NCBI GenBank assembly: GCA_040754495.1 | Contig: JBFMCO010000050.1 | Coordinates: 1-31,468 of the forward strand | DNA: 31,468 nucleotides | Source of the DNA: Candidatus Micrarchaeota archaeon | Lineage (GTDB): Archaea > Micrarchaeota > Micrarchaeia > Anstonellales > Bilamarchaeaceae | Direction: 5' to 3' | Shown here: piece by piece, positions 4,840 through 31,468 of the stretch | Layout of the letters: every line of letters begins with the position of its first letter | Numbering within the stretch: the first letter of the stretch is position 1 | The notes under the pieces: model-generated | The model's input: only the letters and a program-made list of their open reading frames with translations | Database searches by the model: none | Told to the model about the DNA's origin: nothing | Translations under genes and position numbers: made by a program

Positions 4840-4938
4840 AAAAGAGGAGAAAATAAAGAAGAATAAAAAATTGTATTGGACGTTCAGCCGAGCACTTCGA
4901 GGTCCGGGGAACTGCCGTTCCCCAGCTCTCGAGGTGCT

Positions 4939-6021
4939 CTAACCGAGCACCTCAAGATCCTGGCTGTAGGCCGGGACGTGGGATGCCTCTTCCTCGGAGA
5001 CGGTAGAGCCTGCGACGGACGCGCCCTTCACGCCGGTTACTATCGCGACGATTTCGAGCTTGCCCTCGTAGTTCTGCATTATTCTCGCGCCCCACTTGAC
5101 GTTGGCCTCGGCGTCCATCTTCTCGGTGACCATCTCGCCGGCCTTGATTGCGTCGCCGAGCGTGAGGTCGCTGCCGCCGGTGATGTGGATGAGCGCGCCC
5201 TTCGCGCCTTCGAAGTCCACATCAAGAAGCCTGTTCTTTATGACTCCCTCGGCCGCTGCCTTGACCTTGTCGTTGCCCTTGCCCTCGCCGACTGCGATGA
5301 AGCCGACTCCTCCGCCTTCCATGATGGCGCGGACGTCCGCGAAGTCTATGTTGATGAGCGACGGCTGGGTGATTGTCCATACGAGGCCGCTGATTGCCCT
5401 AGAGAGAATCTCGTCAGCAACAGCGAACGCCTCTGCCATGGGCAGGTTCGGGACCAGCTGGACCAGCCTGTTGTTGTCCAGGATGATGACCGAGTCGCAG
5501 TGCTTTTTGAGCGACTTGATGCCTTCATCAGCCCTCTTCTTCCTCGCGCGCTCGAGAGCGAACGGGTAGGTGACCATCGCGACTACGATGGCGCCCTGCT
5601 CCTTCGCGATCTGGGCGATAATCGGGGCTGCGCCGCCGCCGGTTCCGCCGCCCATGCCCGCGCATACGAAGACAAGGTGGGCTCCTTCGAGCTCCCTCTC
5701 CACGAGCGGCCTGTCCACCTCGCACGATTTCGCGCCGATGTCCGGGTATCCGCCCGCACCGAGGCCCTTGGTGACGGACTTTCCTATGAGCACTTTCTTG
5801 GCCCTCTCATGGACTATGTTGAGGTGCTGCTTGTCCGTGTTCACGGCCACAAGCTCGGTCCCCTTCACGCCGCTCTTTATGAGCCTGTTGATCGTGTTGT
5901 TTCCTGCGCCGCCGACACCGACGGTCACGATCTTGATGCTCTCCGAGCTCATCGCGTCCGAAGACTGCTTCTCAGCCTGCGGAGTGTTTTCCCCTACCAC
6001 GGATCTTACAAGGTCTTCCAT
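4939..6021 (-). CDS. ftsZ: cell division GTPase FtsZ (archaeal FtsZ2-like)
   Basis: GVGGAGNN, GGGTGGG tubulin-signature variant, PFALERAR, T7 loop INIDFAD; GGTGA SD. Confidence 0.97.
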   Translation of the reverse strand: MEDLVRSVVGENTPQAEKQSSDAMSSESIKIVTVGVGGAGNNTINRLIKSGVKGTELVAVNTDKQHLNIVHERAKKVLIGKSVTKGLGAGGYPDIGAKSCEVDRPLVERELEGAHLVFVCAGMGGGTGGGAAPIIAQIAKEQGAIVVAMVTYPFALERARKKRADEGIKSLKKHCDSVIILDNNRLVQLVPNLPMAEAFAVADEILSRAISGLVWTITQPSLINIDFADVRAIMEGGGVGFIAVGEGKGNDKVKAAAEGVIKNRLLDVDFEGAKGALIHITGGSDLTLGDAIKAGEMVTEKMDAEANVKWGARIMQNYEGKLEIVAIVTGVKGASVAGSTVSEEEASHVPAYSQDLEVLG

Positions 6022-28855: not shown

Positions 28856-30451
28856 TCACGGCCTCTTGTAGAGCTCCGAGAGCTTCCTTATCTCACGGAG
28901 CTTCCCGTGCGCGGACTCCAGGCGCGACATGCATTTCACGAACGTGGCCGGGGCGTAGGCCTTCTTCGAGTAGAGGCGCTTGAGGTGCTCCGAGTAGGCC
29001 GAGTTTATCTGCTCGCGCAGGAGGACGTCGTTTTCCCGCATCGCAGCCACGTCCGCGTCTATTATCGAGGGGAAGTTGGCCGAGAGGTGGCCCAGATCAT
29101 CCATGATGCGGAAGTGGACCGCGTCCACGTCGCTGCAGGCGTCGGAAGACATCAGCCTCCCCGAGGTTCTCATGGAGTTGGCTGCGTAGGCCATCGCGAC
29201 GCCGAGGTCCGCTATCTGCTCGAGGGCGTTCGACATGCGCAGGAGGAGGACGTTGCGCGAGACCTCCTTAGGCGAGAGCGCCCGGCCTGAGAGCTCGAGC
29301 AGCGCCTTCTCTATCCTCTCGTCGAGGTAATCGTTCAGGGCTTCGCGTTTGAGAAGGCGGCGGAAAGCCTGGCCGTCCTCTCCGTGCATGACGTCCCTCG
29401 AGCGCTCCATCACCTTTATCGTGTTGGAGAGGAGATGGCGGAGCTCTGCCTCGACCGCTGCGAACGCCTTCGGGTTGTCTTCGGGGAGCCTGTCGTTCAG
29501 GCTCACGGTCTGGAAAAGTATCTCCTCCTCCCTGCCCGGGACGAGCTTCTCGACGAATTTGCTGAACGGCTGGAGGACAATGAGGAATGCCCCCGTGGCT
29601 ATTATGTTCGAAATCGTGTGGGCGTTCGCCGCCTGCTGGGCCGCGCTGCCGCCGAGGGACATGATGAAGGAGACGAACTGCGGAAGGAACGGGAGGATGA
29701 GCAGCACCCCGGCCACGTTATAGAGGAACTGGGCGACGGCGGTCCGCTTCGCGAAAAGCCCGAGCCTGAAGGAGGATATCAGCGGGGTTATGGTGCCGAT
29801 GTTCGAGCCGAGGACCAGCACGATGGCTTCCTGCACGCCGATTATGCCGTTGCCGGCAAGGACGACCACGAGGCCGGTGAAGACGCCGCTGGACTGGAAG
29901 AGGTTGGTGACTATGAATCCTACGAGAAGGGCGGTTGGCACGTCGGAAAGGGTTGAGATGTACGATACCAGGGCCGGGTCGTCGCGAAGCGGGGCCGTGG
30001 CCCCGGCTACCAGCCCCATGCTGTGGTACACGAAACCGAAGAAGAACAGGGGCCTCCCGAGGAAGGCGAACCTCCCCCCGAAGAGGCTGAGCAGGAAGCC
30101 GAGCGGTATGAAAACGATACCCAAGGAGGTGAAATTCAGGGCGACAAGCTGGGCGGTTATCGTGGTGCCAATCCCGGCGCCGAATATTATGGCGAGGCTG
30201 TGGGCGAATGATATGACGCCGGAATCCACGAGGCCGAGGGTTATCACTGCAACAGCCGTGCTGGACTGCACGAGCGCGGTCACGACAGCGCCAAGGAGCG
30301 CCCCGCGCGCCGGGTTTTTCGTCGCGCTCCTGATGAACGAGCGGAACCTCTCGCCCGCGACGCGCTGGATTTCCATGCTGAACTGCTCCATGCCGTAGAG
30401 GAACAGTATCAGGCCGGAGGCGATTGCGAGTATGAGCCCGAACTCAAGCAT
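28856..30451 (-). CDS. Na/Pi cotransporter family protein with PhoU-like C-terminal domains
   Basis: LFLYGM, QSSTA and QSSG repeats, GAGIGTT/GSNIGT, helical C-terminus; start at MLEFG. Confidence 0.92.
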   Translation of the reverse strand: MLEFGLILAIASGLILFLYGMEQFSMEIQRVAGERFRSFIRSATKNPARGALLGAVVTALVQSSTAVAVITLGLVDSGVISFAHSLAIIFGAGIGTTITAQLVALNFTSLGIVFIPLGFLLSLFGGRFAFLGRPLFFFGFVYHSMGLVAGATAPLRDDPALVSYISTLSDVPTALLVGFIVTNLFQSSGVFTGLVVVLAGNGIIGVQEAIVLVLGSNIGTITPLISSFRLGLFAKRTAVAQFLYNVAGVLLILPFLPQFVSFIMSLGGSAAQQAANAHTISNIIATGAFLIVLQPFSKFVEKLVPGREEEILFQTVSLNDRLPEDNPKAFAAVEAELRHLLSNTIKVMERSRDVMHGEDGQAFRRLLKREALNDYLDERIEKALLELSGRALSPKEVSRNVLLLRMSNALEQIADLGVAMAYAANSMRTSGRLMSSDACSDVDAVHFRIMDDLGHLSANFPSIIDADVAAMRENDVLLREQINSAYSEHLKRLYSKKAYAPATFVKCMSRLESAHGKLREIRKLSELYKRP

Positions 30452-30502
30452 GGGAAAATATTCCACCGTCGCGATTAAATATCTCTGCTGGGGATATTTT
30501 GC

Positions 30503-30575
30503 AATGATGACAACGGTGATTGCCTGGCTGCGGCCAGGTCTCACCGTCATCAAAATGATGACAACGGTGATCGCC
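30503..30575 (+). repeat. 22-nt direct repeat with an internal inverted copy
   Basis: AATGATGACAACGGTGATYGCC at 30503 and 30554; TCACCGTCATCA at 30541-30552. Confidence 0.85.
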
Positions 30576-30734
30576 GAGCGAAGCCCTAAGCCACCCGATT
30601 GTTCGGAGTGCCGAACAATGGGCCCCATGAACGGTTCGCCGTTCATGTGGGGTTCCGGATACGTGTCAACGGCCCGGAAACAGGGAGCAATCCCGGCCAC
30701 GGCGTAAGCGATGAAGATTGACGTGCGGTCTGAT

Positions 30735-30773
30735 GCGCCTTTTAGGAAAAGGCGCCCAAAAACGGGTTGTTGC
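30735..30773 (+). repeat. second copy of the tRNA-intron 5' module
   Basis: GCGCC-TTTTAGGAAAA-GGCGC-CCAAAAACGGGTTGTTGC versus intron CCCGC-TTTTAGGAAAA-GCGGG-ACCAAAACCGGCTGTTGC. Confidence 0.75.
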
Positions 30774-30904
30774 GCTCGCCTTCGGCTCGCGTCGTAGGGC
30801 ACGGCTAGTAAGTCGCGAGAAGGAGAAACTGCTGAAAATGTTCCTGGATGCTCCGAGGTTCAGGCAGCCATCAGAAGGAGAGCATCAGCGATAATGACAA
30901 AGAC

Positions 30905-31405
30905 TCAGAAACCACGCAGACCAAGCTCATGAAACATGCTCTCATGCTTGATGCAAGTCACGTTATATCTCCTGCAAACATCAGGTATCTTTGGCCTATC
31001 CCTTGTGCCGATTGACTCATCTGTGACTAGAACGACTTCACGGGGATTCTTCTTCTTTTTCTTTTCGACTTCTTTTCTCTGAAGTGCTAGAGCAATGACA
31101 AACGGGTCTGCGCAAGTGGATTCTTTTTCGTGGTCAACAAGCCTTTCAAATTCAGCCATGATTTCCTTTACTTTCTTGAGTTGGTCGTCATCCTGAGATT
31201 TGAACATCTTCTTGTTCTTCTTGTTCCCGAACCATTTGTGCAAACCGTCGTCAACTTTTTCAAGTTCATCCAAAACAAGTGAATGAGAAATAATGTGCTC
31301 ATTCTCTATTTGAGCTTCTATGCCTTTCCACAAAGAAGGGACTGAAAACAGCGGACGAATTTTCCCCAAAAGCAGCGGAATCGTCCCAGCTCTAATACTC
31401 GCCAA
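30905..31405 (-). CDS. DUF4411-like PIN-domain protein, possibly N-terminally truncated
   Basis: PSLW..IE..I....IISHSLVLDEL, ADPFVIALA, LVTDE, KIPDVC; AT-rich; TTG start is uncertain. Confidence 0.7.
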   Translation of the reverse strand: MASIRAGTIPLLLGKIRPLFSVPSLWKGIEAQIENEHIISHSLVLDELEKVDDGLHKWFGNKKNKKMFKSQDDDQLKKVKEIMAEFERLVDHEKESTCADPFVIALALQRKEVEKKKKKNPREVVLVTDESIGTRDRPKIPDVCRRYNVTCIKHESMFHELGLRGF

Positions 31406-31468
31406 AAAAATAAAAACATACGCTCGTTCGCCTCGCTCGCTACTCGGTCTTGGCTTCTGAGGTGTCAG

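Follow-up and report, generated by a model that had tools for sequence, protein, structure and literature searches.

Positions 30555-30733 of the + strand of the window very probably hold the local ortholog of a single-copy box C/D sRNA found phylum-wide in the Micrarchaeota, a predicted methylation guide with an expanded insert. The window is the whole stretch of DNA analysed, 31,468 nucleotides of contig JBFMCO010000050.1, and its source assembly (G000) comprises 1.63 Mb in 72 contigs and is 80% complete. A first-pass annotation, made from the letters alone, had described an unassigned structured RNA here and offered four identities for it: a divergent SRP RNA, a long C/D-capped RNA, a transposon-derived RNA or a new class. 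The second of these is the correct one. A new class was too strong a claim, because the short orthologs are ordinary box C/D sRNAs of 55-65 nt. The RNA thus belongs to a known kind but has been expanded in an unusual and conserved way; an SRP RNA it is not.

Archaeal box C/D sRNAs are usually called uniformly compact, and large structured additions are treated as a eukaryotic trait, that of the snoRNAs that act as rRNA-processing chaperones. The present gene supplies intermediate steps within one set of orthologs, from a canonical form of 60 nt, through a small conserved loop domain in RNAs of 85-90 nt and a three-way junction at about 130 nt, to an RNA of 180 nt with additional mobile hairpins. 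The RNA is also a candidate guide for Cm1402 and Cm1533, and brings to light a phylum-wide habit of keeping at least one guide mismatch against a universally conserved rRNA site, which can be tested.

Box architecture, extent and identity of the RNA

Twenty homologs from the genus were aligned with MAFFT without regard to structure, and a covariance model was built from that alignment. The order of elements was box C, 12 nt, D', a structured segment of variable length, C', 12 nt and box D. The features in and around the window RNA are listed below.

30474-30481, +: TATA-like promoter box ATTAAATA, common to the divergent Na/Pi cotransporter gene (predicted from sequence)
30503-30554, +: 5' insertion/duplication of 51 nt (direct repeat at 51-nt spacing, two inverted pairings)
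30555-30561, +: box C (AUGAUGA); UGAUGA invariant in 20/20 aligned genus homologs and in the phylum model matches
30562-30573, +: D' guide, 12 nt; core complementary to the 16S 3' tail (anti-Shine-Dalgarno)
30574-30577, +: box D'; CCGA in the window, CUGA in most relatives (alignment and D' tally)
30578-30709, +: structured insert between D' and C' (covariation, single-sequence fold)
30578-30579 with 30708-30709, +: helix P1 (RNAalifold)
30583-30585 with 30701-30703, +: helix P2 (RNAalifold)
30586-30589 opposite 30698-30700, +: invariant internal loop, CUAA opposite CAC (conservation in 53 carriers)
30590-30592 with 30695-30697, +: helix P2b (RNAalifold)
30593-30652, +: two junction hairpins with 9-bp stems (30598-30619, 30626-30647), only in the window and G029
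30653-30679, +: hairpin P3/P4, loop GUCA (RNAalifold)
30683-30694, +: hairpin P5 (RNAalifold)
30711-30717, +: box C' (AUGAAGA), from the alignment; fifth position variable among relatives
30718-30729, +: D guide, 12 nt; invariant in the genus, 11/12 complementary to 16S 1398-1409
30730-30733, +: box D (CUGA), end of the conserved RNA; invariant in 20/20 genus homologs and in the phylum model matches
30735-30772, no strand assigned: dispersed hairpin repeat with a T4 run at 30740-30743, outside the RNA family

The C-D' and C'-D spacers are both exactly 12 nt, and the D' and C' boxes are closed by the covarying 2-bp stem P1. The terminal stem of the window RNA is 2-3 bp at best; several of the 55-65 nt orthologs have one of 4-5 bp. 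A first copy of box C lies at 30504, but no D' box is found 12 nt downstream of it, so the second copy was taken as the working box C. The first-pass annotation had suggested that the CTGA at 30730-30733 could pair with the 5' box C. The CTGA is indeed a box D, but the functional box C is the second copy, at 30555-30561, and not the one at 30504.

The RNA is shorter than the interval of 30501-30806 originally drawn for it. A blastn search of 36 genomes of the same genus returned two conserved blocks in 35/36 (window 30555-30593 and 30679-30733), and in those 35 relatives conservation ends exactly at the CTGA at 30733, where every blast and model match stops. The covariance model matched the window once, at 30552-30736, with 88.5 bits. 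The existence of a structured RNA was itself borne out, by a fold better than chance and by covariation in relatives: the 240 nt of 30501-30740 fold with -108 kcal/mol (z = -5.1), and 0/200 shuffles folded equally well. Every sequence feature named in the first-pass annotation was found, either where it had been placed or within one base of it, and the two hairpins it described are perfect 9-bp stems. It had also drawn a closing helix, GCCG..GCCCTA/TAGGGC.CGGC, between 30573-30588 and 30795-30805. The complementary strings are present, but the long-range helix was rejected: its 3' arm lies in non-conserved dispersed hairpin repeats and its 5' arm consists of P2 and the invariant internal loop.

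The RNA lies between two minus-strand genes, a Na/Pi cotransporter-PhoU gene (Na_Pi_cotrans/PhoU) that starts at 30451 on the 5' side and a DUF4411 gene that ends at 30905 on the other flank. The TATA-like box at 30474-30481 would, as we infer from its sequence, serve as the promoter. In one relative (G021, locus L012) the same TATA-like box is followed by 24 nt and then box C, and in most homologs AT-rich boxes stand approximately 22-30 nt upstream of box C. The T4 run at 30740-30743 may end transcription of the sRNA. Beyond 30800 the G+C content falls from about 0.6 to 0.45, in the segment that carries the DUF4411 gene at the contig end (window 30800-31468), and this drop may mark the edge of foreign or mobile DNA.

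No tRNA was called in the window and a search of the whole window against Rfam gave nothing above threshold. Under permissive settings only weak matches to archaeal box C/D sRNAs appeared, over 30500-30579 and 30706-30776. Sub-threshold scores follow from the way the sR1 and sR2 families are defined, ie by other guides. The same holds for the short orthologs, which align end to end with the Rfam archaeal sRNA models sR1 and sR2 and score below threshold. Like Pyrococcus sR1 and sR2 (RF01152, RF01139), the window RNA has C, D', C' and D boxes with two 12-nt guides. The genes for the core proteins are present in the source genome: fibrillarin on C21 (278.9 bits), Nop5 on C59 (178.2 bits) and L7Ae on C64 (96.9 bits). 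The difference lies in size. Archaeal dual-guide sRNAs have a D'-C' loop of 3-10 nt (a K-loop) and a total length of 50-70 nt, whereas the window RNA, at about 180 nt, carries a 132-nt multi-helix domain in that place and so falls outside the compact range. Compact size is a typical trait of archaeal box C/D sRNAs and not a chemical requirement.

There is next to no chance that the region encodes RNase P RNA or some other housekeeping RNA, a divergent SRP RNA included. The SRP idea arose from a local likeness of 30671-30689 (GGCCCGGAAACAGGGAGCA) to the helix 8 consensus, and a length of about 300 nt would suit it if the limits originally drawn were taken. That stretch is present, but its GGAA is the 3' strand of a covarying helix and not a tetraloop, and the short orthologs have no helix-8-like region. 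No SRP or RNase P model matched the region; SRP models gave no match within 30300-31100 even at E <= 10. A search for another SRP RNA in the genome, a find that the first-pass annotation itself took to speak against the SRP identity, located a full-length copy with a canonical helix 8 on contig C66 (5182-5433), and the RNase P RNA sits on contig C61 (full-length match, 71.4 bits). A transposon-derived RNA can likewise be set aside, since there is no HEARO/OMEGA match in Rfam and no transposon gene adjoins the RNA, its neighbours being Na_Pi_cotrans/PhoU and DUF4411. It is also very improbable that the Na/Pi cotransporter-PhoU gene uses the conserved element as a leader or riboswitch on the minus strand. 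The region does lie upstream of that gene, and its 5' duplication is able to form two exclusive hairpins. However, the box motifs and G-U pairs are kept on the + strand only, homologs in other genera adjoin other genes, and the TATA-like box stands 23-30 nt from the transporter start codon, a spacing that fits a leaderless mRNA. As a separate observation, the SRP RNA on C66 (5182-5433; L001:1503-1750, minus strand) reached 72.4 bits with the Bacteria_large_SRP model (cut-off 60) but only 46.8 bits with the archaeal one, short of that model's cut-off.

Homologs, size classes and the D'-C' insert

Using the covariance model, one copy per genome was found in 99/151 genomes of the order and in 72/151 genomes sampled from the phylum; the model E-values are rough, and related genomes are non-independent samples. 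An exact-motif scan of 185,579 species genomes gave 83 loci, most of them under record titles that name Micrarchaeota lineages (Micrarchaeia, Anstonellales, Bilamarchaeaceae), and the model confirmed the RNA at 72 of the 80 motif-scan loci listed. Homologs in other genera have different neighbouring genes. The sRNA is absent from Rfam, and it was not found among the top-ranked results of a literature text search that included Micrarchaeota. One 92-bit match to the sRNA lies on a contig of a bacterial MAG (L062, CAZAYB010000075.1, labelled Pirellulales), which is probably mis-binned.

The homologs fall into four size classes. Most are 55-65 nt long, textbook dual-guide sRNAs that belong to other orders, to other families or to certain genera of the window's own family. 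RNAs of 85-90 nt are found in several genera of that family, probably the Bilamarchaeaceae, and in their linker a 4-by-3 internal loop separates a short stem from a second one that ends in a tetraloop. The third class, at 125-135 nt, comprises the window's genus and a few neighbours, and has two hairpins in place of the tetraloop. The few RNAs of 170-190 nt, the window's among them, have further hairpins inserted at the junction. In two genomes of the window's genus, G025 and G026, the RNA is no longer than 61-62 nt. About 75 nt of the insert is common to the genus, and a core of about 30 nt with the CUAA/CAC loop is common to the family.

Covariation across relatives had been proposed as a check on the structured RNA. 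RNAalifold on the structure-blind alignment gave five insert helices with compensatory changes in 15/22 pairs, and the single-sequence fold agrees with them. When pairs were counted directly, 95.9% of the cells were paired, compared with 30-43% when the partners were slid by 1-3 columns, and the observed covariation score was reached by 0/500 shuffles. For 72 sequences aligned with the model, an alignment that leans towards the model, the corresponding values were 94.8% against 28-45%, and 18/22 pairs changed on both sides. G-U cells (about 41) outnumber non-pairs (18), an excess that fits the + strand.

The most constant nucleotides of the insert are unpaired. CUAA is identical in all 53 insert carriers (100%) and the CAC across from it is 91-100% conserved, whereas the paired positions next to them show 55-98% identity and several covary. 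Within the genus the GUCA loop of P4 hardly varies. That unpaired nucleotides stay constant while the neighbouring stems have turned over suggests selection on a contact surface. The insert motif occurs only once in the source genome. According to a review (PMC7994747), the C'/D' element of archaeal sRNAs is usually a K-loop that a short terminal loop closes. The 132-nt linker of the window RNA is closed by a stem, and its C'/D' element would accordingly be a true kink-turn and not a K-loop.

Two further functions of the insert were considered and rejected. The GUCA hairpin might mask the D guide in cis, and it was the best internal site in 14/24 sequences, yet the duplex energies were on average no better than those of shuffles (mean z -0.33) and strong in one subclade only. 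Mimicry of rRNA by CUAAG or CUAAGCCA strings was also discarded, as these occur in 16S at chance level; they are of the same sense as 16S, and pairing with it is therefore impossible.

Guides and their predicted 16S targets

The source assembly contains 16S positions 4-828 only and no 23S, so the targets were read from the rRNAs of relatives. Positions are given in E. coli 16S numbering, assigned from the conserved sequence. In several assemblies of the genus the 16S match ends or begins at model position 828-830 beside a contig end (G000 C48:6425-7267; G025 C4:107-994; G034 C4:83478-84111), and two relatives have uninterrupted 16S genes. A weak point of the assembly could explain this, as could a variable insertion at the site.

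The one position at which the D guide fails to pair with 16S 1398-1409 is a C-U mismatch at C1403, and by the fifth-nucleotide rule the sequence points to C1402 as the target. This is by far the best D-guide site in the 16S and 23S rRNA of a relative. It is also the only near-match that recurs in five genomes, leaving aside the antisense of the gene itself. Searches of 5 and 7 genomes for perfect alternative targets returned only that antisense.

The D' guide has a 7-nt core, GGUGAUC, in the window, and an 8-nt core, AGGUGAUC, in most relatives; a C replaces the first A in the window, giving 7 bp as against 8 bp. It pairs with the anti-Shine-Dalgarno tail at 1530-1537, the 3' end of 16S in the relatives being GAUCACCUCC, and by the N+5 rule C1533 is the predicted target. 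Nearly all of the approximately 75 homologs retain GGUGAUC and the four 5' positions of the guide vary freely, so that the conserved part of the guide is exactly the stretch complementary to the 16S 3' end. A 23S target was rejected: a GAUCACC occurs at about position 1832 in one relative (G033), in a variable helix, and is absent in another (G031).

The D guide varies between families, but all of the approximately 75 tabulated homologs keep at least one internal mismatch to 1398-1409. It lies opposite C1403 in the window's family and several others, and elsewhere opposite C1402, C1400 or C1404. In some families it falls on C1402, the N+5 nucleotide itself, a position where, as in-vitro work suggests, it would hinder methylation. 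Covariation of the D-guide variants with 16S was tried as an explanation and discarded, the 16S being canonical in 12/12 genomes from eight other families of the order. One may speculate that the kept mismatch reflects selection for a weakened duplex or for an unpaired cytidine.

The closest comparison by guide sites is sR13 of Nanoarchaeum equitans, also a member of the DPANN, whose guides pair at 1405-1415 (Am1408) and 1531-1540 (Am1534) of 16S (Seistrup et al. 2017, PMC5389701). Both RNAs thus have guides at the helix 44 decoding site and at the anti-Shine-Dalgarno sequence. They differ in that sR13 targets A1408 and A1534, has the opposite guide order and is of normal size, and in that N. 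equitans has no RsmA/Dim1 whereas the window's genus has RsmA. Both modifications predicted here have measured counterparts in other archaea: N. equitans has Cm1402 and I. hospitalis has Cm1533, and neither was given an sRNA (PMC5389701).

Among eukaryotes, the box C/D RNAs U3, U14, U13/snR45 and snR70/SNORD43 resemble the window RNA in being long and in having added structured domains. Some of these multi-domain snoRNAs are folding chaperones of 18S rRNA, and the nucleotide equivalent to C1402 is methylated under the guidance of snR70/SNORD43. The extra domains show no sequence similarity to the present insert and no sign of shared origin with it, and the likeness is one of functional analogy.

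Possible roles of the insert and recent additions to it

The particle would be assembled by L7Ae binding to the C/D and C'/D' kink-turns, with Nop5 and fibrillarin completing it. Through its two 12-nt guides the particle would then grip neighbouring segments of the 3' minor domain of 16S, one with each guide. The D guide, on the decoding-centre strand at 1398-1409, would direct 2'-O-methylation of C1402, and the D' guide, on the anti-Shine-Dalgarno tail at 1530-1537, that of C1533. In cryo-EM structures the face of the particle on which the loop ends of the sRNA lie is an exposed one (PMC5062973). A loop end that faces outward could tolerate an insert, which is therefore sterically plausible at this place. 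Most likely the insert offers a surface to which a partner binds, either a protein or an RNA. As a tentative and rather doubtful extension of this, the CUAA/CAC domain may be a docking module and the sRNP a small-subunit maturation factor, in which the guides clamp nascent 16S at the anti-Shine-Dalgarno tail and the decoding-centre strand, the insert recruits a processing or modification enzyme, and the mismatch has been selected for release in these mesophilic archaea with reduced genomes. If the docking module is real, the sRNP would be an archaeal counterpart of multi-domain snoRNAs such as U3, U14 and U13.

It is possible, though we think it unlikely, that the RNA is a chaperone or scaffold capped by box C/D motifs and no methylation guide, with guides that only tether it to nascent 16S rRNA (decoding-centre strand, anti-Shine-Dalgarno tail), an insert that positions a maturation factor and a mismatch that tunes release. 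This overlaps with the preferred explanation, the sole difference being which of the activities matters. The mismatch argues for it, since at least one is kept at C1400, C1402, C1403 or C1404 in all of the approximately 75 homologs against an invariant 16S site, and falls in some families on the N+5 nucleotide; so do the invariant unpaired loop nucleotides of the insert. For sR13 of N. equitans, too, a part in folding and as a checkpoint was proposed, namely the timing of the folding of helices 44-45 (PMC5389701). On the other side, a particle that methylates requires intact boxes and spacers of exactly 12 nt, as found here, both Cm1402 and Cm1533 occur in other archaea, and no binding partner of the insert was found. 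Moreover, KsgA/RsmA (PF00398) was detected in 40/40 genomes of the genus, which leaves no missing checkpoint to replace, and the specific idea that the RNA stands in for an absent KsgA/Dim1, as in the Nanoarchaeota, was rejected for the same reason. Less likely again is that the insert is functionless baggage, ie selfish hairpins accumulated in a permissive D'-C' loop, where covariation would come merely from keeping the loop folded and D' and C' together. Recent origin and membership of dispersed families do hold for the 9-bp hairpins, for the 5' duplication and for the downstream repeats, unrelated simple hairpins occupy the same place in other families, and the 61-62 nt form in G025 and G026 manages without the domain. 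Neutral filler would not, however, be expected to keep the CUAA/CAC and GUCA loops invariant across genera while the surrounding stems changed several times, and the motif is unique in the genome and not dispersed. We prefer a methylation guide, although the C-U mismatch next to the predicted target, the short D' duplex, and the CCGA form of D' and weak terminal stem in the window RNA count against it.

Some parts of the window RNA are additions of its own. The 5' insertion consists of a copy of box C and the guide (30503-30520), an apical hairpin (30523-30538) and an inverted copy (30541-30552). Thus 30503-30524 duplicates 30554-30575 at 51-nt spacing, with the inverted copy and the small hairpin in between. 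The duplication is absent from G029, the nearest relative in the core, and from G021, which has the same TATA-like box and spacing. Five other species have analogous insertions at the same spot with different apical hairpins, and these are independent of the window's. That such insertions are recent follows from a close pair of genomes, G005 without an insertion and G018 with one. The two junction hairpins fall in a 78-nt insertion in the model alignment, and the sequence of the second recurs elsewhere in the source genome (C24, C28).

The repeat at 30735-30772 has at least 10 further copies in the source genome (including G000 C14:17188-17220, C52:5566-5597 and C46:1699-1733) and many in nearly every genome of the genus. 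It is approximately 33-39 nt long, with a 5-bp G+C stem, a TTTT-AGG-AAAA centre and an A-rich tail, and may be a bidirectional terminator or a mobile hairpin. The 5' duplication, the 9-bp hairpins and the downstream repeats are probably all recent, neutral insertions of small hairpin elements, and the 5' duplication looks like a by-product of such an insertion and not like a designed switch. A loose scan of the genome for the direct-inverted-direct layout gave 19 loci, few of them clear cases, compared with 3-4 in shuffled controls, a suggestive excess. The layout is also seen at the 3' end of ftsZ (window 4888-4963), and the copies, including those at 30503-30575, are 51-55 nt apart.

A different element, which is not in the window and has no Rfam match, begins with UUCAUUAGCCUGA and can fold into a hairpin of about 9 bp. 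In many relatives from several families it follows directly on the T-run of the sRNA, as at L028:1075-1125 (minus strand) and in the 3' flanks of L164, L168, L174, L186, L187, L191, L192 and L199.
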